DNA of 64,000 bases from Ostreococcus lucimarinus (lineage: Eukaryota), in the NCBI GenBank assembly GCA_000092065.1, contig CP000582.1; one strand, 5' to 3'. How positions within the stretch are numbered: position 1 is the first letter of the stretch; every line of letters starts with the position of its first letter. Position numbers and translations under genes: made by a program. The notes below the pieces were generated by a model, which did no database searches, was not told the DNA's origin, and was given only the letters and a program-made list of their open reading frames with translations. This document shows positions 46,302-57,004 of the stretch, piece after piece.

Positions 46302-48512
46302 TCACGACGCGCGCGAAAAGAGAACGCGATGCAAACCCTTAATCTCTCGCACGTCCGCGCGCAAGAGTTCGCGAACGTCATCGTCTGCGAACACGCTCGG
46401 ACGCTCCGAACCGCCCGCGCCCTCTCGCCGCTCGAGCTCGCGGAGCGCCTCGGCTATGGCCTCGCCTTTGCTCTCGCCTCGACGCACGCGACGGACGTTT
46501 GGCGCGCGAACGCCGTGTGTTTTCAAATACACCTCGATCGCTTCGACGTTCGAGTTCCTCGTGATCACGAACGCGCGCGCGTCGTGCGAGGTAAGCAAGC
46601 CCACCAAGTCGGCGTCTCGCGACTTGAGCTCGCACGCCCGGCGCAACCCCGCGGGATCGAGCTCGCGGAAGTTCTTTGGAAGCGGCGATGCGCCGGCTTT
46701 TGTGGCGCATATCGTGCGGTCGAAATCTAAGAAGACGCAGTACGCGTCGAGTGTTTCCACGAGCTGGACGACGTCCTCGGCATCGCCGCGTGATATGCCG
46801 CAAATTTCGCAAGAGGCCTCGCGCTCGCACTTGAGGCACCGCCTCGAGTGCCGGCACCACGCCTCGCGAAGACACGAAGAAGTCACGGGACAGCGCCCTT
46901 CGTTTCGCGCGGTTTCTTCGCACACCATGCACGTGTTCGCCGTGACCCACAAATTTGAGAACGAGCGCTCGCACGTCCCGCAACGATGGGTGCCGGTGAC
47001 GTGGAGTAAGCGCCCGTCGCTCGCGCCGGCGAGGTCGCTCGAGGCGACCGCCGCCGTCATCCCCGCGTAGAATTTTTGCGTCGTCTGGGTGTACTGATTG
47101 ATGATCTTGGCCAGCGCGAAATCATCGGGCACGAACGACGTGGTATTAATACTATCTCCCGAAGCGAACAAAACCTTCGTGGGCTCATCGAGGATCTTCT
47201 GGATCCACTTTGTCGTCTCTCGAAGCGCCGGCGCCGCCCCCTCGAGGGCGTTCGCCCCTCGGTCGACCACGCACGCGCGTTGAAGTTTGTCCAACGCTTC
47301 GCGCGATGGAGGTATTTTCGCCCCGCTCGTGTCGAAGTCGTCGCGTAAGATATCGTCCGGTGTCGCGTGATCTTTGCGAAGCCTCGCGGCGAGCGTCTCA
47401 GAGTTTTGGGCGATTTCATTCGCGAAGCGTAAAAACTCCCTCAGTTCGGCTCGAATCCAGAGCGCCTTCGTCGCCCCTCGAGCGATGAGAGAAAGCTCGA
47501 TAAATCGAACGTAATGCGCCGGGAGATTGAGCTCTTCGCGCACGCGAGTCATGATATGCTCGAAATCTTTCGTCAGCGCAGGCGTCATCGCCCGCGCGTC
47601 CATCGCCGCCGGCGGCGCGACGGTCAAATCTTTCAATGATTCCTCGACGGCGTCCGATGATGACTCAGCGCCGCCGATTCGAGCGGCATCGGCGGCGGCT
47701 TTGCCGACGTATCCGTGCGTCACCAACGACCGTGGCATCGACGCCAACCGACGCGGACGACTCAAATTTGGATGTCTCGGCACGCAGCATATCTGCTTCG
47801 TGAAAACGCGCCCATCGAAGATCGCTTTGGCGGCGCCCAAACACCGCCCCCTCGCCGTGCAAATCTCGCGATATCTCGCCGCGTCGACGTACCCGGAGGC
47901 TTGCCCAAAGTCTCCTCTATAAAATGTCATCAATCGTCGCAAACGCATCTCCAACACCTCTATCTCGTATTGCGAATGTAACAACACCTTCTTTAGGTTC
48001 ACGCAATTCCTCCTCGTCCCGAACGCATCGCTCACCGCGCCCGCGCGGTCGATGAATTCCGCCACCGCGCCGCCGAGCCGCGAACCGAAGACGCCGACGA
48101 CGTCTCTTCGCACTAAATCCCACCTTCCTTGCTCAAAAGTCAAGATATTTCTCGCGTCAACGTCCAGCACACACTGTCCAGGTATCGCATCGCGCGTCTC
48201 TCCGCCGTAAAGCGCCCTCACGCGCCGTTCGAACGTCTCCGCGTCCTCGTCGCCGCGACGCGCCGCGAGCGCGTTCGCGGCGTCTGCGAGCGTCGTCGAG
48301 ACCACCATCGATGACGTCGTCCGCGCGCACCACCGCGCGCGCGTCTCGCGCCGCCGAGCGTCGACTCGAGCGCAATCACCCACGACGCGCGCGCGCGCGT
48401 CGCTCGTTCGCGCGCTCGCGTCGCGCGCGCGCCTCCGGACCGCCGCTTTCGTCGCCGCGCGTCGTCGCGCGTCGTCGTCGACGCCGAGACGTTCGATTTC
48501 GCGCGCATCCAC
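46302..48512 (-). CDS. Hypothetical large protein with Cys-rich segment and C-terminal HAD-like (DxDxT) motif
   Basis: A 736-aa ORF with a complex, non-repetitive sequence. It has a Cys-rich block (HRCGTCERSFSNLWVTANTCMVCEETARNEGRCPVTSSCLREAWCRHSRRCLKCEREASCEIC) followed by CVFLDFDRTICATKAG, a HAD motif I-like DxDxT. The N-terminal start is uncertain. I did not recognise the family. Confidence 0.4.
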   Translation of the reverse strand: MDAREIERLGVDDDARRRAATKAAVRRRARDASARTSDARARVVGDCARVDARRRETRARWCARTTSSMVVSTTLADAANALAARRGDEDAETFERRVRALYGGETRDAIPGQCVLDVDARNILTFEQGRWDLVRRDVVGVFGSRLGGAVAEFIDRAGAVSDAFGTRRNCVNLKKVLLHSQYEIEVLEMRLRRLMTFYRGDFGQASGYVDAARYREICTARGRCLGAAKAIFDGRVFTKQICCVPRHPNLSRPRRLASMPRSLVTHGYVGKAAADAARIGGAESSSDAVEESLKDLTVAPPAAMDARAMTPALTKDFEHIMTRVREELNLPAHYVRFIELSLIARGATKALWIRAELREFLRFANEIAQNSETLAARLRKDHATPDDILRDDFDTSGAKIPPSREALDKLQRACVVDRGANALEGAAPALRETTKWIQKILDEPTKVLFASGDSINTTSFVPDDFALAKIINQYTQTTQKFYAGMTAAVASSDLAGASDGRLLHVTGTHRCGTCERSFSNLWVTANTCMVCEETARNEGRCPVTSSCLREAWCRHSRRCLKCEREASCEICGISRGDAEDVVQLVETLDAYCVFLDFDRTICATKAGASPLPKNFRELDPAGLRRACELKSRDADLVGLLTSHDARAFVITRNSNVEAIEVYLKTHGVRAPNVRRVRRGESKGEAIAEALRELERREGAGGSERPSVFADDDVRELLRADVREIKGLHRVLFSRAS

Positions 48513-49259
48513 CGCGCCGACGACGCGATCTCACCGCCCGCGCTCGCCGCGCAGACGCGCAAACGCGCCCCTTCTTTTCGTCCCGCGCGCCTCCCGCGCC
48601 CGGCGTCCCGCGCCCGCGTCGCGCACTCGCGCCGCGCGCCGCGCGCGACGCGCGCGCGTCGATCCCCTCGCGCGCGCGCGCGTCCGACCGACCGCCTCCA
48701 CGTATTCCGCGCGCGAAACGCCCATCAAAGTGGAATCAGAACCGACGAACGCCGATCGTCTCGCGCGATGGCGTTCGCGACGCGCCGAGTACGGCGTTCG
48801 CGACGCGCGTCGCGCGCTAAATTCGCGAGTCCCGCGCGTCGAGTCGCGACCGGTCGCGGGGGCGCGGGCCCCGCGACTCTTTGAATTCTTAGACGTTTCA
48901 GACCTTGAATACGAGATCATCGATCGTTCGGGACTCAACAGCGTGGGACTCCCCATCGGCGCGATTCAAATTCGCCCGTTGGCCGCGCTTCGGTCCCCTC
49001 GCGTCACAGCGCGACGCGACATGTCGTCGCCGGCGAAGGAGAACCCCGCGAGCGGGGACGGTGGCGTCAAGACGCCGTCATCGGTGCGCGCCGCGGGCGA
49101 GCGCGCGATCGCGAGCGCGACGAGATGCGAATCGCGACGACGATGACGACGCGGTTTGATTTGAACGCGCGTCGGATGGACGAATGCGGGGACGACGATG
49201 GCGCGCGCGCGCGCGAACGCGAGACTGACGGAGACGACGAACGGATTCGAACGTAGATA

Positions 49260-52200
49260 TTGAAACGACAGTCGCGATCGGCGCTCGCGGCGTCGCCGTC
49301 GTCGCAGGCGGTGTTCGGGGAGAATGGGTCGGCGGCGCGGTCGACGCGCGCGACGCGCGCCTCGGCGCGAAGAGATTCGTCGGCGAGTCAAGGCGAGGGT
49401 GCGCCGGCGTCGCCGGCGTTCACGAAACGAAAGAAGCAGCGACAGTCGATGGGGCGACGCGTGTCGTTCGCGGATCCGGCGCAGTTGGAGAGCGTGCGAG
49501 AGTTTATTAAGGAGGAGGAGGAACGAGAGAAGAGCGGAGAGTCGTACCAGAGCGGCGCGCAGAGCGAGGGTGTGCCCGCGGGGTTCGGACTCGTGGAAGA
49601 GACGAGCGTGGACGTGATACCCATGGTACAAGGTGATCGCACGGAGACGTTCGAGTTTAAGGCTGCGCAGGAGACTTTGACGACGAACGTCGCGGCGGCG
49701 GGAGAAGGGACGCCGTCGCCGCTCGAGCGTGGCGATGGAGTATCTTTTTCCTTGTCTCCGGTCATCGAGAGCGATGGTGACGCGTCGAATAGCGCCCAAT
49801 TAAATAGTGAGGGGAAGCACACGCCGGGCAAGCGACGCGCGAGCATTGGACGCGTGGCGACGCCGAACTCGGCGGATCAAACGGGGACGTTTACGTTTAA
49901 CGCTTCGCAGAATATGGATGAAGTCACGGGTGAGGTACCGACGATGGGTGCGTTAATCGACGCCGACGACGTGACGGAAAATATCACCGGTGCTGTTCCG
50001 TCGTTGGCGAATCTTTTGAGCGCCGATGAGTCGCCGCTTGGGTACAGACCGACGCCGACGCGGGGCTCCAAGGCGGACGCGACGGAGGACATCACGGGCA
50101 CTGTGCCGTCGCTCGCCGCGCTCGCTGACGAAGACGAGGAACAAAACGCCTCCGCGGCTCAGAGTGATCAAGAAGGTGGTGAGATGGACATGGACATGGG
50201 TAACACCACCGACGGTCTTCCCACGTTCGATCCGTTGGTTGACGCCACGCAACGCGCCGTCGATCAGGCGCACGCGAGCGCGCTCAACTTGGCAAACACT
50301 GTGATGATGGACGAAGCGACGATGGCGTTCACTGTGGGTGCGCCCACGCCTAGTTCCGTCGCGCCCGGTCCGACGCCTTCGTTGACGTTTGCATTCGACG
50401 ATAAGAAGGATAACCGAGCGAGCGTTGGGGCGCCGCCGCCATCCGTCACCGCAAACACGCGACCGTTCAATTTGACCGATTCCACGAATTTGGATTTGCA
50501 GCGCCAAGCCAAGGGTGGCATGGGCACCGATACCTTCAACTACGTCTACGGACCGAACGGTGATATGGTACCGACTGAGGGTACGACCGCGACGCAATCA
50601 GTCGCCGCGCCGCAACCCTCCGCGATGGATTTTCCAACCGCGGAAGTCACGGGTGCTGACGTGCAGGTGGCTGTCGGGGTCACGCCCGCGAATACCGCCG
50701 GTGTCACGGCGACGCCGAACACTGACGGATCCATCGCGAGCTCACACGATGGCTTTACGCCTGGTGACGAGTCTTTGCGCATGGCGGAGCTCTTGCGTCA
50801 AAAGCAGCACGGCGACGAGGCGTTGATGAGCATGAGAAAGGTGTACCAAGATAGAACGACACCGATGCACGGACGTTACGGCGCGCCGCCGGCGATGCAA
50901 GCGTTCACGCCTTCGAGGACGATCACGATGGGTGGTACCAATTTCATGCAGTTTGGTGGTATCGGTACGCCGGGCGCAGCGATGCACAACCCGCTCTTTG
51001 GCACGCCTGGCGGTCACACGGGCACGATGTTGCAAGGCCTCCCCACGTCGCTTCCGCCGATTCCGGACGCCTTGATGCACTCCAAACCGATCGATTTGGA
51101 GACGTTCTTCTACGCTTGTGAGATTTCCTTCATGGAAGCGAAGAACTTAGGACGTCGTTCATCCATTGCCATGGGCGCGCTTGCCACAGCGCCGCCGCCG
51201 GAGACGCAACCCGAAGCTTTGAAGCTGTGTTGCCTGACCGCACCGCTCATCGAAGCGCTGGAAGGGTTCCACGAGCAGCTCCAAGAGCGAATGACGACGC
51301 TCACTAGCGAAACGGACAAGTTGCGATCGACAGTCGAGGCGACGCAGCCGCCATTGTTACGTTACGCCGCGTCCGACGATCCGGCGCACGTCAACGAGTT
51401 GCGTCGTGCGGGCAAGGCGCTGAAAAAGGAATGCCAACTCGCGGCTAAGGAGCGATTCGCGCAGCAGCGATTGGAGACAGAAGAACTCGTGCGCGAAAGT
51501 TTGAACTTCCACAGCGATATCCTGGCGAAGAGCGCGCAAAGCATCGCGAACTCGCGAGCCATCGCGGCGGAGGCGATTTCGAGCGCCAATGGCCACATCA
51601 TCAAGCTCCGGGCGCAGCGAGCGGCGAGCTCTAAGCGTGCTGATGCGGCGAAATCCGCCTCAGCGACCAAGGAACAAGTTTTGGAAGCTCTTGCGATCAA
51701 ACGCGCTGCGATAGCCGCCGCACGTCGCGCTTTAACGACCAGTGATGAAAATTTGGTTCGCATGAAGTCGCGAAAGACGACCATCAAGTCTGAGCGCGAG
51801 CGTTTGCAAGAAGAACTTGACGCCATGCGTGAGGCGCAAGACGCGGCGGCGGACGCGACGGTGAGTTTCAAATCGTTCGGCGGTGTTGACATGGACGACA
51901 CGCCTTCTCGATTACGCAGAGCGAGTCAAGTGAGGCTTCGCGCCAAGGCAAAGAATGCTCAAAGTGCGAGCGAAGAGCTCGGCGTGTTGAGCGGACTCGC
52001 GCCGTGGCGTCTCGAAGGCGTCGGTGGACCGGTGGGGGCGGAACTGACGATGCGTGTCGGTACACTGTTCCGAGTGACGCTCGATGCGAGCACTGGTGCC
52101 GGTCGTGTCACGTTGATCGACGGTCCGGAGACCACGCCGAAGGGTGGACGTCAGTTCGCCGCGGCTTTGGCTGGCGCGCCTATCGCTTGGGACGAAGACG

Positions 52201-52673
52201 CCGTGCCCGCAGGACATGTCGCTGGTGTCTTACAAGAGCTCGCGCCGAAGCTTTCTCGCGCCGAGCGCGTGCTGGAAGAAACTGAAGGATGCCGAAACGA
52301 GTTTCCTCGACTGAATAGAATCAAGTGTAGCCCCAATGGTGTGCTCGAGCTCACCTTCGTCGATTTTGCCAACGAGCGCTTGTTTAGCGTCAAGCTCAAC
52401 ATGATGGGTGGTGCCTATCCCTACGGAGCTCTGAGCCCCGAGGTCACGGTGCAACTCACTGGGAAGAAGGGTGTCAGCGAGTTACCGAGCGTTGAAGCGA
52501 TTCAACGCGCCGTGAACGCCGTGCCCGTCGGACCGCGCCGTTTGACAAACGTGTGCCGCATTTTAGATTCCATAGTCAGCACGGGGAAGAACGCTTTGAC
52601 GTCGTTCGCGTCCATGCCCGCCCCGGCACCGCGAAGACCGTCACACGCACCTTCGCTCCTGTATGCTCGTTAG
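49260..52673 (+). CDS. Large disordered protein with PP1-docking RVSF motif, acidic TG-repeats, C-terminal coiled coil; KNL1/Spc105-like kinetochore scaffold candidate
   Basis: Near the N-terminus is KRKKQRQSMGRRVSFADP, a classical RVxF PP1-docking site positioned as in KNL1. Three degenerate repeats (MDEVTGEVPTMGALIDADD, TENITGAVPSLANLLSADE, TEDITGTVPSLAALADEDE) recall MELT-type motifs. Residues ~700-870 are coiled-coil (LTSETDKLRSTVEAT...ERERLQEELDAMREAQ). The C-terminal ~250 aa could be an RWD-like domain. Assignment is by architecture, not strong identity. Confidence 0.4.
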   Translation: MKRQSRSALAASPSSQAVFGENGSAARSTRATRASARRDSSASQGEGAPASPAFTKRKKQRQSMGRRVSFADPAQLESVREFIKEEEEREKSGESYQSGAQSEGVPAGFGLVEETSVDVIPMVQGDRTETFEFKAAQETLTTNVAAAGEGTPSPLERGDGVSFSLSPVIESDGDASNSAQLNSEGKHTPGKRRASIGRVATPNSADQTGTFTFNASQNMDEVTGEVPTMGALIDADDVTENITGAVPSLANLLSADESPLGYRPTPTRGSKADATEDITGTVPSLAALADEDEEQNASAAQSDQEGGEMDMDMGNTTDGLPTFDPLVDATQRAVDQAHASALNLANTVMMDEATMAFTVGAPTPSSVAPGPTPSLTFAFDDKKDNRASVGAPPPSVTANTRPFNLTDSTNLDLQRQAKGGMGTDTFNYVYGPNGDMVPTEGTTATQSVAAPQPSAMDFPTAEVTGADVQVAVGVTPANTAGVTATPNTDGSIASSHDGFTPGDESLRMAELLRQKQHGDEALMSMRKVYQDRTTPMHGRYGAPPAMQAFTPSRTITMGGTNFMQFGGIGTPGAAMHNPLFGTPGGHTGTMLQGLPTSLPPIPDALMHSKPIDLETFFYACEISFMEAKNLGRRSSIAMGALATAPPPETQPEALKLCCLTAPLIEALEGFHEQLQERMTTLTSETDKLRSTVEATQPPLLRYAASDDPAHVNELRRAGKALKKECQLAAKERFAQQRLETEELVRESLNFHSDILAKSAQSIANSRAIAAEAISSANGHIIKLRAQRAASSKRADAAKSASATKEQVLEALAIKRAAIAAARRALTTSDENLVRMKSRKTTIKSERERLQEELDAMREAQDAAADATVSFKSFGGVDMDDTPSRLRRASQVRLRAKAKNAQSASEELGVLSGLAPWRLEGVGGPVGAELTMRVGTLFRVTLDASTGAGRVTLIDGPETTPKGGRQFAAALAGAPIAWDEDAVPAGHVAGVLQELAPKLSRAERVLEETEGCRNEFPRLNRIKCSPNGVLELTFVDFANERLFSVKLNMMGGAYPYGALSPEVTVQLTGKKGVSELPSVEAIQRAVNAVPVGPRRLTNVCRILDSIVSTGKNALTSFASMPAPAPRRPSHAPSLLYAR

Positions 52674-52707
52674 CTCGTACATTGGTACAATAATCAAATC
52701 AAACATT

Positions 52708-54087
52708 TCACAGACTAAAGCTAGTAGCCGCGCCGTCGAACGCTATACGAAGCTCCGGCGGTGAAGCTGCCGCGACGCGCGCTTCATCACCGTCACCAAT
52801 CGTTCTAAACGCTAAACAGTGCACACTTCGCAGTCGTTCGTAGAGCACGCGATCGAAGCCCAACTGTCGAAGCGCGGCGCGCCATTCGCTAAGGATGGGG
52901 AGGGCTTTATGTCCGCAGTGCCCTTTGTCCGTCGAATGCGGGGTGATGATGAAAAGTAAGCCACCGCCGCGATTTTTCAACGCTAAACGCGCGCGCCGCA
53001 CCATCTCTCCTCGCTGTTTCGGCGTTGGAAGGTAACTTAGAACGAGACTGAACACGACAACGTCCGCGGCGTGCTGCGCGACGGCTTCGAGGCGTCGATC
53101 CGTCACTCTTTGCGCGTTACCAAACTCCACCTTGAGCCAATCGCATTCGTACACCGATGGTACCGATGGCATTAGATCGCACGCAGTCGTCTCTACGCTC
53201 AACCTTCCCGGCCACGGTCCTTTAAAATGCAAATTAAAGTAATCCCAACAAGAGCCGACGTCTAAAATCTTTATCGACGTCCCCGCGGCGGCGCTACGAT
53301 CGGGTGTCCCTCTCGGCCCATCGCTTTCGACGACGTCTCGCATCATCATTTCTATCGTCGCTTTTGACGACGTCATCGCTCGCTTCAACTCTCTCGCGCG
53401 CCGTTTGTTCGCCAGTTGCCACGAAAAGGACGTCGTCGCCGCCTTCAACGACCCTTCGCCATCGCTAAAATACCGCCCCATCGCGTCGACGCACCATTCA
53501 AGCGCGCTCACCACCCACGCGCGATTCCCAACCTCCGTAGCGGCTTCCGCGTACGCGCGCAACGCCGGTTTCTGTTCCACGATCGTTCGTTCCCACGTCT
53601 CGTCGACGTCCTCAGCCTCTCGCGCCGCCGCTCTCAACGCTCGATGATGATTGACGATCACCCCTCGTCGCCACACCGCCCGCGCTCTGTCCCGCGCGCT
53701 CTTCGCCGTCGCGCGCGCGACTTCTCGTCTCAACGCCTCGTCGTCGCCGTTCGTTTTCGCCGCCTCCGCGAAGACGCCCGCGCACCGCGCGCGCCGGTCC
53801 GCCGCCGCGTTCGCCGCCAACGCCTCCGTCGTCTCTCGCACCCGCGCCAGCACCGCCGACCGCGCGCCGTCGTCCGCGCCGTCGTCCAGCGCATCTTTTT
53901 CAGCGACAGCCAGGGCGAAGAGCGCTCGCACGACGCGCTCGCACGACCGCGAATCCCCGAACGAGGCCCCGACGTCGCGCTCGATCTCGCGGCGCTCCTC
54001 CGCGGACGCGCGCTCGAGCGCCGCGCGCGCGGCGCGGCGCAAGCGGCGCGCGCAGTGCGCGAAGAGCGACGCCGGGAGCGCATCCAT
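52708..54087 (-). CDS. BMT2/SAMTOR-family SAM-dependent methyltransferase
   Basis: C-terminal class I MTase: IKILDVGSCWDYF, CDLMPSVPSVYECDWLKV, VVVFSLVLSYLPTPKQRGEMVRRARLALKNRGGGLLFIITPHS. This is the BMT2 family pattern (LVLEYMP...QR, GLLFLVTP). ORF 52708..55005 is trimmed to the Met beginning MDALPAS at 54087; the upstream 900 nt encode Ser/Ala/Phe filler. Confidence 0.55.
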   Translation of the reverse strand: MDALPASLFAHCARRLRRAARAALERASAEERREIERDVGASFGDSRSCERVVRALFALAVAEKDALDDGADDGARSAVLARVRETTEALAANAAADRRARCAGVFAEAAKTNGDDEALRREVARATAKSARDRARAVWRRGVIVNHHRALRAAAREAEDVDETWERTIVEQKPALRAYAEAATEVGNRAWVVSALEWCVDAMGRYFSDGEGSLKAATTSFSWQLANKRRARELKRAMTSSKATIEMMMRDVVESDGPRGTPDRSAAAGTSIKILDVGSCWDYFNLHFKGPWPGRLSVETTACDLMPSVPSVYECDWLKVEFGNAQRVTDRRLEAVAQHAADVVVFSLVLSYLPTPKQRGEMVRRARLALKNRGGGLLFIITPHSTDKGHCGHKALPILSEWRAALRQLGFDRVLYERLRSVHCLAFRTIGDGDEARVAAASPPELRIAFDGAATSFSL

Positions 54088-54211
54088 GGGACACTTCGCG
54101 GCGCGCTGTGACGCCCCGCGCGTCGACGACGACGCGCGAGGCGACGCGCGCGCGTCGGACGCGCGGTATAATAATCGCGACGACGTCGTCGACGCGCGAC
54201 TCGAGCCGGGC

Positions 54212-57004
54212 ATGAAACGCGGGAACGCGGGCGATGGGAAGCGCCGCCGCCGGCTGGGCAAAACGAACAAAGCGCCGCCGCCGCGCGCGCCGGTCGTCGA
54301 ACGCGATGCGAACGACGACTCGGAGAGCGACGTGAGCGATGAGGATGTGAAATTCGTCCGACGGAACGCGGCGTACGCGTCGTTCATCGCGAAAGGGAGC
54401 TTTGAGGAGGAAGAGGGGGGGAAGCGACGGCGAGCGGGACGCGAGCGCGACGCGGACGACGACGATTTGGAGGGGGCGCACGCGCGCGCGTTGGCGGAGA
54501 AACGACGAAAAGTTGAGGAGGAGAAGAAACGGATCGCGAATTTGCCGGATGAGGAGAAACCGATGCGGTTGCCGGTGAAACGATTGGACGGGACGGTGGT
54601 GCGAGACGCGGTGGCGCCGCCAGACGCGCCGGCGAGCGACGAAGAGGAGGCGGGAGGAAGACGGAATGACGCGGACGAGGGCGAGGGACGGTGGAAAAAC
54701 GTTGGCGATGGCGAAGGTAAGGGTTTGGGCAAGAAGGCGCTGGCGAGAGAGATTCGAGAGAGTGATCTTGGGCGGGAGACGACGAAATCAAAGAAGAACG
54801 AAAAGTGGTGGGAAAAGCGCGAGGAGGAAGAAGCCGCGGCGAAGGCGAAGGCGAAGAAGCGCGCAAAGGGAGATTCCGACAGCGCTAGCGACTCAGAAGA
54901 CGCGCGAGCGAACGACCCGGCGATGAAACTCGCGGACAAGCGTCGAGCCGAGCGATTGGCTCTTGAGGCGGAGATGAGCGCAGAGGCGCGACGCGAGAGC
55001 GTCAAGGTACGAATTGCGTCGACGTGTCAGAGCGTCATCGAGGATCCAGAGTCGAAGTGGAAAGAGCTCAAAGACATCGGCACGCTTTGTGAAGACCGAG
55101 ACTCGGAAATCGCTCGATTAGCGTCGCTATCGCTCACCTTGGTCTACCGCGACATTTGCCCGGGCTATCGCATTCGACCTCCGACGGAAAAGGAGTTGTC
55201 CATGAAGGTGAGTAAAGACGTGCTCAAGACGCGCGCTTTCGAGACGGGCTTGCTTGAGCACTACAAGTCGTACGTGAAAATGCTAGTGAGATGCTCTGGG
55301 GCGAAGAAATCTCGCGCACAGCGTGGCAAAGGCGGACCAGATGCGGAGTCTGCGATCAAGTGTTTGTGCGCCTTGCTCATCGGATTGCCGAGCTTCAACT
55401 ATCGCACGGATATTTTATCCGCCATCGTGCCCGTCTTCGATAAGCGAGACACCAGTCACGCGCAGATCGTCACTGATGCTCTGGTTGAGGTCGTGTCTAA
55501 CGACATTCGCGGCGATCTCACGCTCGAGGCGTTGCACATGACGGCGCAGCTCGTGAAGCAGAGTAAATGCAACATTCAGCCGTGCGCGTTTGCGTACTTC
55601 CTCAAGGTTCGCTTCGATGAGGGCATATTAGTGCCTATGGTGCGTGACAGGAAAGAAATTCTTTCTCGTAAGCAGACGTTCAAGAAGAAGCAGGAAGAGC
55701 GTGATAAGATTCGCAGAGCTCGCGCGGAGAAGACGAGGAAGCAACAAGACAAGGAACGCATGAAATCATTCGGGCACGTCGCGGACTCTTCAGACGATAG
55801 CGAAGACGAAGAGGCGGCGTTTCATCGAGATTTAGACGAAGGTTCAGCGGTGATGAGTTTCGGCGAGAAGAAAAAAACGCAGAGTCGATTATTAGAGGCG
55901 ACTTTCGAGATGTACTTTCGCGTATTGAAGAACGCCGCGAGTCCGGCGCCGACGCCCGGGTTGCCGCTCTTGAGCGCCGCGCTCACGGGTTTGGCAAAGT
56001 TCACGCATTTAATCTCCATCGATTTCTTGGGTGATCTCATGGAAGTGTTTAGAAAGTTATTGGCCCAGGAAGACTTGCTCTCGGACGCGCTCAAGGCGCA
56101 AACTTTGCTGACGGCGTGTGAAATTTTGAGCGGTCACGGAGAGGTTTTGCAAGTGGATACCGGGGAATTCTACCGTCAGCTCTATACGATGCTCGGCAAG
56201 CCCAGCGTAGGTGCAGCGGGGTGGCAAGATGGTATGTCTATAACCGATCAACGCGCGCTCAATCACGGCACGCTGCGCGTTCGTGCCATTCAAAAGTTCA
56301 TCGGCGGTTTCAAGCAAGTCGATCAAGCACGCATGGCGGCGTTTTCCAAGCGCCTCACCTCGGCGTCGATCGGCATGGAAGCTGGCGAATGCCTGGGTTC
56401 GCTCGGTGTCGTCCGCCAAATTCTCGCGTCGTATCATCGCGTGCGTAACTTGCTCGAGAACGAGCGGATTGGGAACGGAGTGTTTCAGATGGATTTAGAC
56501 GATCCCGAGCACGCACAAGGCATGTCCGCCGTGCTCTGGGATCTTTGTCTACTTTCGCAACACTACCATCCCACGTGCGCGGCGGCGGCTCACGAGGTTG
56601 CCAATTTACCACTCTCGGGCGCGATAGCTCCACCTCCCGGCTCACACGCCCCGAGCGAGCTCGCAAAGGCGTACTCCACGCTCCGTGGAGACTTCAACCC
56701 GCCGATTCCCGAGCCGCCGACGCAACGCAACAAACCGCGAGCGCCGATCGATCAGAAAAAGTTCGTCGACGCCTACGACGAATCTTTCAAACGGAACGTC
56801 ATCAGTAAGCTCGGCGACACCGTCGACACCGTCGAAGCGCGTGCGTTCCGCCGACATTTCCGTCGCGTTCGAGCGCACGGGGAAAACTTTCGGTTACGAA
56901 GGGAGCGCGACGCCCTCGCGCGAAAAATTAGCGCCATGCGCGCGCACGAGCTCGAAGCCAAGTCGAAGTCGAAATCTAAAAAATCGTCGTCCAAACGCAC
57001 GTAG
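54212..57004 (+). CDS. NOC3: Nucleolar complex protein 3 (NOC3)-like
   Basis: Basic/acidic N-terminus (KRRRRLGKTNKAPPPRAPVVERDANDDSESDVSDED). NOC3 N-domain block: LTLVYRDICPGYRIRPPTEKE...VSKDVLKTRAFETGLLEHYKSYVKML. A large helical-repeat (CBF/Mak21-like) C-terminal region, and a Lys-rich tail (KSKSKSKKSSSKRT). The start is the Met beginning MKRGNAG at 54212. An alternative start at 54086 lies inside a CCATGG shared with the divergent gene. Confidence 0.55.
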   Translation: MKRGNAGDGKRRRRLGKTNKAPPPRAPVVERDANDDSESDVSDEDVKFVRRNAAYASFIAKGSFEEEEGGKRRRAGRERDADDDDLEGAHARALAEKRRKVEEEKKRIANLPDEEKPMRLPVKRLDGTVVRDAVAPPDAPASDEEEAGGRRNDADEGEGRWKNVGDGEGKGLGKKALAREIRESDLGRETTKSKKNEKWWEKREEEEAAAKAKAKKRAKGDSDSASDSEDARANDPAMKLADKRRAERLALEAEMSAEARRESVKVRIASTCQSVIEDPESKWKELKDIGTLCEDRDSEIARLASLSLTLVYRDICPGYRIRPPTEKELSMKVSKDVLKTRAFETGLLEHYKSYVKMLVRCSGAKKSRAQRGKGGPDAESAIKCLCALLIGLPSFNYRTDILSAIVPVFDKRDTSHAQIVTDALVEVVSNDIRGDLTLEALHMTAQLVKQSKCNIQPCAFAYFLKVRFDEGILVPMVRDRKEILSRKQTFKKKQEERDKIRRARAEKTRKQQDKERMKSFGHVADSSDDSEDEEAAFHRDLDEGSAVMSFGEKKKTQSRLLEATFEMYFRVLKNAASPAPTPGLPLLSAALTGLAKFTHLISIDFLGDLMEVFRKLLAQEDLLSDALKAQTLLTACEILSGHGEVLQVDTGEFYRQLYTMLGKPSVGAAGWQDGMSITDQRALNHGTLRVRAIQKFIGGFKQVDQARMAAFSKRLTSASIGMEAGECLGSLGVVRQILASYHRVRNLLENERIGNGVFQMDLDDPEHAQGMSAVLWDLCLLSQHYHPTCAAAAHEVANLPLSGAIAPPPGSHAPSELAKAYSTLRGDFNPPIPEPPTQRNKPRAPIDQKKFVDAYDESFKRNVISKLGDTVDTVEARAFRRHFRRVRAHGENFRLRRERDALARKISAMRAHELEAKSKSKSKKSSSKRT

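Follow-up and report, generated by a model that had tools for sequence, protein, structure and literature searches.

KNL1 (CASC5 in human, Spc105 or Spc7 in yeast) is the large scaffold of the outer-kinetochore KMN (KNL1-Mis12-Ndc80) network. Roles have been documented for three of its short motifs, SILK, RVSF and MELT, and a proline at +4 from the threonine recurs in KNL1 repeats, according to PMC10786300 and PMC4558858. Arrays of MELT (M-[ED]-[ILVM]-T), which dock Bub3-Bub1 after Mps1 phosphorylation, vary across the KNL1 family and are absent in flowering plants. Here we analyze a KNL1 gene within a 64,000-nucleotide (nt) stretch of Ostreococcus lucimarinus DNA (contig CP000582.1), referred to below as the window. 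We are highly confident that the open reading frame (ORF) at 49260-52673 on the plus strand encodes the O. lucimarinus orthologue of KNL1/Spc105/Spc7. The assignment is correct but not new, the protein having been part of a published Knl1 orthologue set since 2017.

Family assignment of the reading frame

The ORF contains 1137 codons counted from a TTG; this TTG is not a start codon, and the first ATG within the ORF is found at 49449. An initial annotation of the window had proposed a KNL1/Spc105-like scaffold at exactly these coordinates, and all of the features that it listed are present. A search of the whole ORF against Pfam returned one family, Spc7 (PF08317), whose score of 40.2 bits exceeds the gathering threshold of 34.5 bits (E 3e-10), covering ORF residues 608-792 (51081-51635, plus strand). 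Spc7 also scored above the gathering threshold in orthologues of about 40% identity, which we call Micromonas-like, and in distant chlorophyte homologues. The Micromonas-like proteins (P0008-P0012, P0016 and P0059) are alanine-rich, 1540-1680 amino acids long, come from metagenomes and JGI, and are presumably from Micromonas; the published 2017 Knl1 set (PMC5579357) has no Micromonas entry.

The C-terminal fold was examined by structure prediction. The last 236 structured residues were modelled with an alignment of ten orthologue fragments, giving a predicted local distance difference test score (pLDDT) of 81.7 and a predicted template modelling score of 0.72. When this model was compared with the PDB by Foldseek, the first six matches were all KNL1/Spc105 chains (E 4.6e-7 to 7.8e-3), in the order human 8ppr_K, 4nfa, 4nf9_B, 4nf9_A and 8q5h_K, then yeast 9s4q_Kl; all other matches had E > 0.05. 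The model indicates that the C-terminus is a KNL1-type tandem RWD, in agreement with the domain of RWD-like size noted initially. The predicted RWD-N occupies 51903-52190 and the predicted RWD-C 52218-52598 (both plus strand), the latter being the best-predicted part of the model with a block pLDDT of 82-93 over most of its length.

The protein is also identifiable from the published record. The 1074-amino-acid entry Ostreococcus_lucimarinus_OLUC006991_Knl1, listed by van Hooff et al. (2017, EMBO Rep 18:1559, Dataset EV1; PMC5579357), matches residues 86-1159 of the spliced model presented below with 100% identity, and the KNL1 assignment is therefore already known. This identity also places the window in the genome of O. 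lucimarinus strain CCE9901. A second record of 1074 amino acids (P0102), differing by one residue from the window protein, is a 'hypothetical protein' at both NCBI and JGI. For O. lucimarinus, the same dataset contains Zwint-1, Mis12, Dsn1, Nnf1, Nsl1, Ndc80, Nuf2, Spc24 and Spc25, together with the checkpoint proteins Bub3, MadBub, Mps1, Mad1 and Mad2 (PMC5579357). In these published sets the O. lucimarinus KNL1 is thus found alongside the Mis12 complex, the Ndc80 complex and Zwint-1, as expected of an orthologue present once per genome; co-occurrence with the Mis12 and Ndc80 complexes had been proposed as a check in the initial annotation. The expectation that an algal KNL1 would be hard to find, and its assignment correspondingly useful, did not hold: a routine Pfam search detects the O. 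lucimarinus protein, UniRef already names the O. tauri orthologue by its Spc7 domain, and the O. lucimarinus protein itself had been published as Knl1.

Some observations weigh against the assignment or its structural part. The C-terminal 277 amino acids match Pfam Knl1_RWD_C only below threshold (22 versus 27.8 bits, E 1.9e-4), and the RWD assignment therefore rests on predicted structure. A profile of the C-terminal 539 amino acids reached no solved KNL1 among PDB sequences, giving chance matches (PriA, Lpp; E of at least 0.1); this was a small profile, with the KNL1 structures out of its reach by sequence. The coiled-coil region was modelled with moderate confidence, the AlphaFold model of the last 539 amino acids having a pLDDT of 65.6. 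Finally, no experimental work on the O. lucimarinus KNL1 protein was found in the searchable literature.

Threonine repeats of the acidic region

The N-terminal 95 amino acids of the spliced protein are strongly basic (net charge +11, isoelectric point 11.8) and are followed by an acidic segment, residues 96-360, with a net charge of -34 and an isoelectric point of 4.05, as the initial description of an acidic region had it. This middle region is of low complexity and carries conserved short motifs. Alignment with orthologues of approximately 80% and 40% identity revealed invariant islands inside an otherwise divergent N-terminal half: RRVSFA...LESVREF, two repeats, GMGTDTF.YVYG, DGFTPG..[ST]L.M..L...HG and AFTPSR. 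The motifs are kept over approximately 60% sequence divergence, and throughout Chlorophyta and moss.

Three related repeats, which we term TG repeats, are located in the acidic segment on the plus strand, their number being that initially reported. The first, MDEVTGEVPTMGALIDADD (core MDEVTGEVPTM; 49914-49970), is conserved within Ostreococcus; the second, TENITGAVPSLANLLSADE (TENITGAVPSL; 49974-50030), is preceded by DDVT, and it and the third, TEDITGTVPSLAALADEDEE (TEDITGTVPSL; 50082-50141), are supported by the orthologue alignment. The O. lucimarinus consensus is [DE]-[IV]-T-G-x-V-P-x-[LM]-x-x-L followed by an acidic residue. The pattern [IVL]T..[VIL]P.[LM]..[LIVM] matches the protein three times, a number reached in 0 of 20,000 residue shuffles (maximum 1). 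In the second repeat the T, V, P, L and L positions were invariant in all 14 of the 14 aligned orthologue sequences, and in the third repeat the T, V, P, L and A positions were invariant in the orthologue alignment.

An exhaustive representative profile search recovered 87 relatives, the full-length distant ones being Spc7-positive; a separate word-indexed homologue search with the same profile gave two proteins only, one of them frameshifted. In the distant homologues the repeat reads G-[DN]-[IV]-T-x-x-[VIL]-P-x-L-x-x-L followed by acidic residues and is present in one to at least five copies. Cymbomonas tetramitiformis KNL1 has five copies and Chlamydomonas schloesseri KNL1 has one; in the van Hooff set, single copies are found in Chlamydomonas reinhardtii, Volvox and Coccomyxa, and two copies in Chlorella and in the moss Physcomitrella (GITEAIPKWKDVL and GITAAIPNVQDLLAAD; PMC5579357). 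It had been suggested that the repeats could be lineage-specific. Their occurrence across Chlorophyta and in moss shows that they are not specific to Mamiellophyceae, and the two repeat cores of Physcomitrella patens Knl1 place the origin of the module before the chlorophyte/streptophyte split.

We considered how the TG repeat relates to MELT. The description of the repeats as MELT-like stands as far as resemblance goes: the threonine follows I or V, there is D, E or N at -2 and proline at +4, and copy number is variable. A proline at +4 recurs in the arthropod, Yarrowia and red-algal KNL1 repeats, as noted by Tromer et al. (PMC4558858). As an equation of the two motifs the description does not stand, and here two results speak against a simple MELT reading. 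A motif scan found no canonical M[ED][ILVM]T in O. lucimarinus KNL1 or in the Micromonas-like orthologues, the Ostreococcus and Micromonas-like proteins showing DDVT-ENIT and DAT-EDIT in its place. Canonical M[ED][ILVM]T is present (for example SMDLTNN, SMELTD and DMDITQ) in 13 of 20 chlorophyte homologues from outside Mamiellales, where it coexists with the TG repeat. In most of the MELT-bearing chlorophyte homologues a TG repeat is preceded by a MELT copy at a distance of no more than about 50 residues, and in one homologue the two abut ('MDLTENITLNLPDL'). The MELT-bearing homologues are among P0037-P0099 and the Knl1 proteins of Chlamydomonas, Volvox, Coccomyxa and Chlorella (PMC5579357). 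Because canonical MELT coexists with it as a separate neighbor in these other chlorophytes, the TG repeat is, on sequence comparison, a separate module that neighbors MELT and not simply a local spelling of it.

The mechanistic steps proposed here and below are carried over from established human and yeast KNL1 biology (PMC10786300, PMC4558858, PMC12526889); our own analysis bears on architecture only. By this analogy, the acidic middle region with its three TG repeats is probably a docking platform for Bub3-MadBub, which it would recruit after Mps1-type phosphorylation, and the invariant repeat threonines would be the likely phospho-acceptors. The repeat may itself be the Bub3 dock, or it may assist a degenerate MELT (DDVT, DAT) next to it, in the manner of the accessory motifs that flank animal MELT.

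A different role for the repeats also has to be weighed, in which the protein is still KNL1 but the TG repeats are another type of linear motif, such as an acidic-tailed L-x-x-[ILV]-x-E of the PP2A-B56 type or a site bound by some other kinetochore protein, and Bub recruitment takes place elsewhere. The sequence L-x-x-[LI]-x-E followed by acidic residues matches the B56 consensus, and many chlorophyte repeats end in this way (PSLAAIAEADE, PSLGALAEADE, PGLAALLEEDE). The coexistence of canonical MELT in the 13 chlorophyte homologues similarly means that the repeat need not do the job of MELT. In O. lucimarinus, however, position 6 is D, S and D (MGALID, LANLLS, LAALAD) rather than the Glu needed by the B56 pocket. 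Moreover, the most invariant residues are the Thr, the V-P and the two Leu, a footprint longer than LxxIxE, and the copy number varies between species from one to at least five, as it does in MELT arrays (PMC4558858). We regard such an alternative role as unlikely.

If this docking role is extended to the whole distribution of the repeat, the TG unit could be an ancestral KNL1 module of the green lineage that recruits checkpoint proteins, kept from prasinophytes to moss and apparently lost in flowering plants, and standing beside MELT in most chlorophytes but as the sole such module in Mamiellophyceae. We put this forward tentatively, as a possibility somewhat short of an even one. Were it true, repeat-based Bub recruitment would have been lost on the land-plant branch that gave rise to flowering plants, and a transformable alga whose minimal KNL1 has three repeats would be available as a test system. 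Being widely distributed and placed beside canonical MELT, the repeat offers binding studies a well-defined target. No paper discussing an algal KNL1 protein or its repeat came up in full-text searches for KNL1 together with Ostreococcus, Micromonas or Chlamydomonas.

A predicted intron-split SILK motif and the PP1 dock

The N-terminal part of the ORF carries KRKKQRQSMGRRVSFADP at ORF residues 56-73 (49425-49478), within which RRVSF occupies residues 66-70 (49455-49469), the position near the N-terminus at which an RVxF-type PP1 dock had first been recognized. The basic patch, the RVxF motif and a conserved extension together form KRKKQRQSMGRRVSFADPAQLESVREF (49425-49505, plus strand). RRVSFA...LESVREF is kept in the orthologues of about 40% identity, and the form RRVSFAPD..L....H.F is found in Chlorella, Chlamydomonas, Volvox, Coccomyxa and moss; in its basic context, RVSF is kept in all orthologues whose sequence includes the N-terminus. 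Conservation of both RVSF and the TG repeats, which the initial annotation had proposed as a check in other Mamiellophyceae, was seen in Ostreococcus orthologues, in Micromonas-like sequences and across Chlorophyta.

An in-frame TAG at 49254-49256 ends the mechanical ORF on its upstream side, and codons for ILKRQ follow directly after it. From the comparative evidence and the O. tauri annotation we infer a splice at 49083/49257, so that the gene would consist of exon 1 (49021-49083), a 173-nt intron (49084-49256; donor GTGCGC, acceptor ACGTAG) and exon 2 (49257-52673; ILKRQSRS to SLLYAR and stop), all on the plus strand, and would encode 1159 amino acids. Exon 1 starts where the upstream ORF has its first in-frame ATG, and it encodes MSSPAKENPASGDGGVKTPSS. 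It contributes both serines of a SILK motif (49078-49268; spliced TPSSILKRQS), the first half of a bipartite PP1 dock. The joining of SS to ILKR by splicing would therefore produce a canonical SILK (TPSSILKR) and the full bipartite SILK...RVSF arrangement, the [S/G]ILK motif lying 65 residues upstream of RVSF in the spliced model.

Comparison with other Ostreococcus sequences bears directly on this model. In the window and in a contig of a sister species (L002), an upstream ATG-initiated stretch ends in 'VKTPSS' and is followed by GT (donors GTGCGC and GTACGT, respectively); 'VKTPSS' and the GT donor are also kept in the annotated O. tauri gene (L004). The latter spans 3684 nt for 3522 coding nt and has a single intron of 162 nt, from L004:1684 (GTGCGT) to 1845 (cgtAG), situated exactly at the homologous KTPSS/ILKR junction, where the annotated protein reads ...VKTPSSILKRRSRT.... 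Over ILKRQ, L002 and the window show four synonymous and no non-synonymous differences. In the Micromonas-like orthologues, 'ATPSSILKRRRRS' runs across the junction without interruption, and the spliced 'TPSSILKR' is identical to the unspliced 'TPSSILKRRRRS' of these proteins. Relative to L002 the intron sequence is unconserved apart from a GACTGACG block, which all three Ostreococcus species share at approximately 25-45 nt ahead of the acceptor and which is consistent with a branch point. The stretch GACTGACGG (49222-49230, plus strand; L002:778-786; L004:1805-1813) is the sole conserved stretch in the otherwise divergent intron, and is probably the branch point.

The alternative is that the allele is damaged, with the TAG being a nonsense mutation or sequencing error and the protein starting without SILK at Met 49449. 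Both the gene model of NCBI/JGI and the Knl1 entry from 2017 do begin there, at MGRRVSF, and L002 has CAG at the position of the TAG. However, CAG and TAG are both canonical YAG acceptors. Across the whole gene, two independent metagenome assemblies differ from the window at only five positions, and the same TAG and GT are present in each. The conserved 'VKTPSS'-GT boundary, the O. tauri intron at the same junction, the exclusively synonymous differences over ILKRQ and the uninterrupted Micromonas-like sequence are likewise at odds with a damaged allele. A nonsense codon or sequencing error at 49254 was accordingly rejected, on the evidence of L002, the O. tauri intron and the two assemblies, and we consider a damaged allele highly improbable; on the comparative evidence, the TAG at 49254-49256 is the acceptor of the 173-nt intron. 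Two sources were of no help here: contig L001 (coverage about 3x) is uninformative, its intron region being obscured by G-rich assembly noise, and the N-termini of the metagenome homologues P0001-P0007 are unreliable for the start, as they derive from prokaryote-style gene calls (P0005 begins at GTG).

The SILK motif of relatives reads TPSSILKRRSRT in O. tauri, TPSSILKRRRRS in the Micromonas-like proteins, GSILKRE in Coccomyxa and NSILRKR in Chlamydomonas; the human KNL1 motif, HSSILKPP, is comparable to TPSSILKR of O. lucimarinus. By starting at Met 49449, the public model (NCBI/JGI and the 2017 dataset) leaves out exon 1 as well as 64 residues at the start of exon 2, and with them SILK and most of the basic N-terminus. 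Because the public model is truncated in this manner, motif surveys using it would wrongly score Ostreococcus as lacking SILK. The corrected N-terminus restores the half of the PP1 dock that is absent from the public models, a correction of modest value. By analogy with the characterized proteins, SILK and RVSF would recruit PP1 and lead to silencing of the spindle checkpoint, and Aurora-type phosphorylation of the RRVS serine would block PP1 binding.

Helical region, neighboring genes and known KNL1 proteins

A long alpha-helical region of coiled-coil type, approximately 260 amino acids in length (51207-51989, plus strand), is predicted to lead into the RWD domains, in keeping with the coiled coil of the initial annotation. 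In the AlphaFold model of the last 539 amino acids, helices are found at model residues 52-97, 110-201, 206-271 and 284-312, corresponding to 46, 92, 66 and 29 residues; they precede the two RWD halves of the folded alpha/beta C-terminal domain and have a block pLDDT of approximately 50-75. The coiled coil is deduced from these long helices and the Spc7 match. The isolated helical segment scores 45.6 bits against Pfam Spc7. No match to golgin or SMC families (GRIP/GRAB, SMC hinge, ATPase heads) was found in Pfam at E values up to 10 with the whole protein or its segments, so that the competing homology to a golgin or SMC-like family, one of two findings named at the outset as refuting the assignment, did not appear; the other, a C-terminus lacking an RWD fold, is contradicted by the structural model. 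That this is an unrelated long coiled-coil protein with a chance RVSF tetrapeptide can be dismissed: the isolated helical segment does weakly match CCDC90-like (E 0.013) and Prefoldin_2 (E 0.34) families, but far below their thresholds, and the reading is refuted by the Pfam Spc7 match, the KNL1 chains found by Foldseek and the identity to the published Knl1. As a KNL1, the protein would be anchored to the Mis12 complex (Nsl1/Dsn1 tails) by its RWD pair and the preceding helix, and its helical region would pair with Zwint-1/Kre28.

Two further conserved motifs are located between the repeats and the helical region on the plus strand, as determined from the orthologue alignment. The first, GMGTDTFNYVYG (50517-50552), has the counterpart MGTNTFDFVYGG in Micromonas-like orthologues and MGD.TY...YG in Chlorella, Chlamydomonas and Coccomyxa; its general form across chlorophyte KNL1 is MG(T)D.T[FY]...YG. 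The second, DGFTPGDESLRMAELLRQKQHGDEA (50748-50822), contains GF.PG..[ST][LM] and a likely amphipathic helix. Its G, F, T, P, G, L, M, L, H and G are invariant in orthologue alignment A1, and it reads [KR]WGF.PG..DT[LM] in most chlorophyte homologues, the form across chlorophyte KNL1 being GF.PG..[DE][ST][LM] followed by the likely amphipathic helix. Its GFTPG...LRMAELLRQK portion loosely resembles the vertebrate KI motif (D/E-[ST]-x-x-hydrophobic-x-x-x-L-[KR]), a resemblance that carries little information; KI motifs are reported as vertebrate-only (PMC4558858).

The neighbors of KNL1 are ordinary eukaryotic housekeeping genes. Within 52708-57004, a minus-strand gene for a Bmt2-like rRNA methyltransferase forms a convergent pair with KNL1, its end lying 34 nt beyond the KNL1 stop, and a NOC3/CBF nucleolar gene comes next; the order KNL1, Bmt2-like, NOC3/CBF is the same in O. 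tauri and on other Ostreococcus contigs. Upstream, a divergent ORF of 736 codons (46302-48512, minus strand) gave no Pfam match at E <= 0.001; it has a cysteine-rich stretch (CGTCERSF...CMVCEE...CLKCEREASCEICG). The G+C content of the window is approximately 63%, and long spurious ORFs fill its other frames and strands; the KNL1 ORF is backed by homologues and domain matches. Many Arg/Ala/Gly-rich ORFs of 100-280 codons within 48218-54481 share DNA with the KNL1 gene, lying on the opposite strand or in a different frame. Such ORFs are typical of DNA with this G+C content and are no evidence of genes.

Among the closest known proteins, besides the published entry for the same gene, is the O. 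tauri orthologue (XP_022840780.1/CEG01076.1; 1173 amino acids), a version of which (OUS42145.1) is named 'Spc7 kinetochore protein domain-containing protein' in UniRef, and whose cluster representative (P0004) is 81-82% identical to the O. lucimarinus protein. The two have in common the architecture, the three repeats and the position of the intron with SILK across its junction; they differ in that O. tauri is annotated with approximately 35 additional N-terminal residues and has an intron of 162 nt rather than 173 nt. Human KNL1 and yeast Spc105/Spc7 are far more distant, with an RWD identity to the alga of only 14-18%. In contrast to these, the algal protein lacks canonical M[ED][ILVM]T and the T-omega/MELT/SHT unit, its KI motifs are not identifiable, and it has three repeats compared with approximately 19 in human KNL1, being half the length of the latter.

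Land-plant KNL1 (Arabidopsis, maize) has in common with the alga RVSF and a similar downstream extension, the coiled coil and the RWD (PMC10786300). Flowering-plant KNL1 is reported to have RVSF only, without SILK or MELT arrays, and lineage-specific domains that bind BMF (PMC10786300, PMC4558858, PMC12526889). Unlike flowering plants, O. lucimarinus KNL1 keeps both SILK and a repeat array, and the GIT.AIP repeat persists in two copies in moss Knl1. Chlorophyte KNL1 thus retains the SILK motif and the threonine-repeat array that are reported as lost in flowering plants, which bears on the rewiring of the plant checkpoint.

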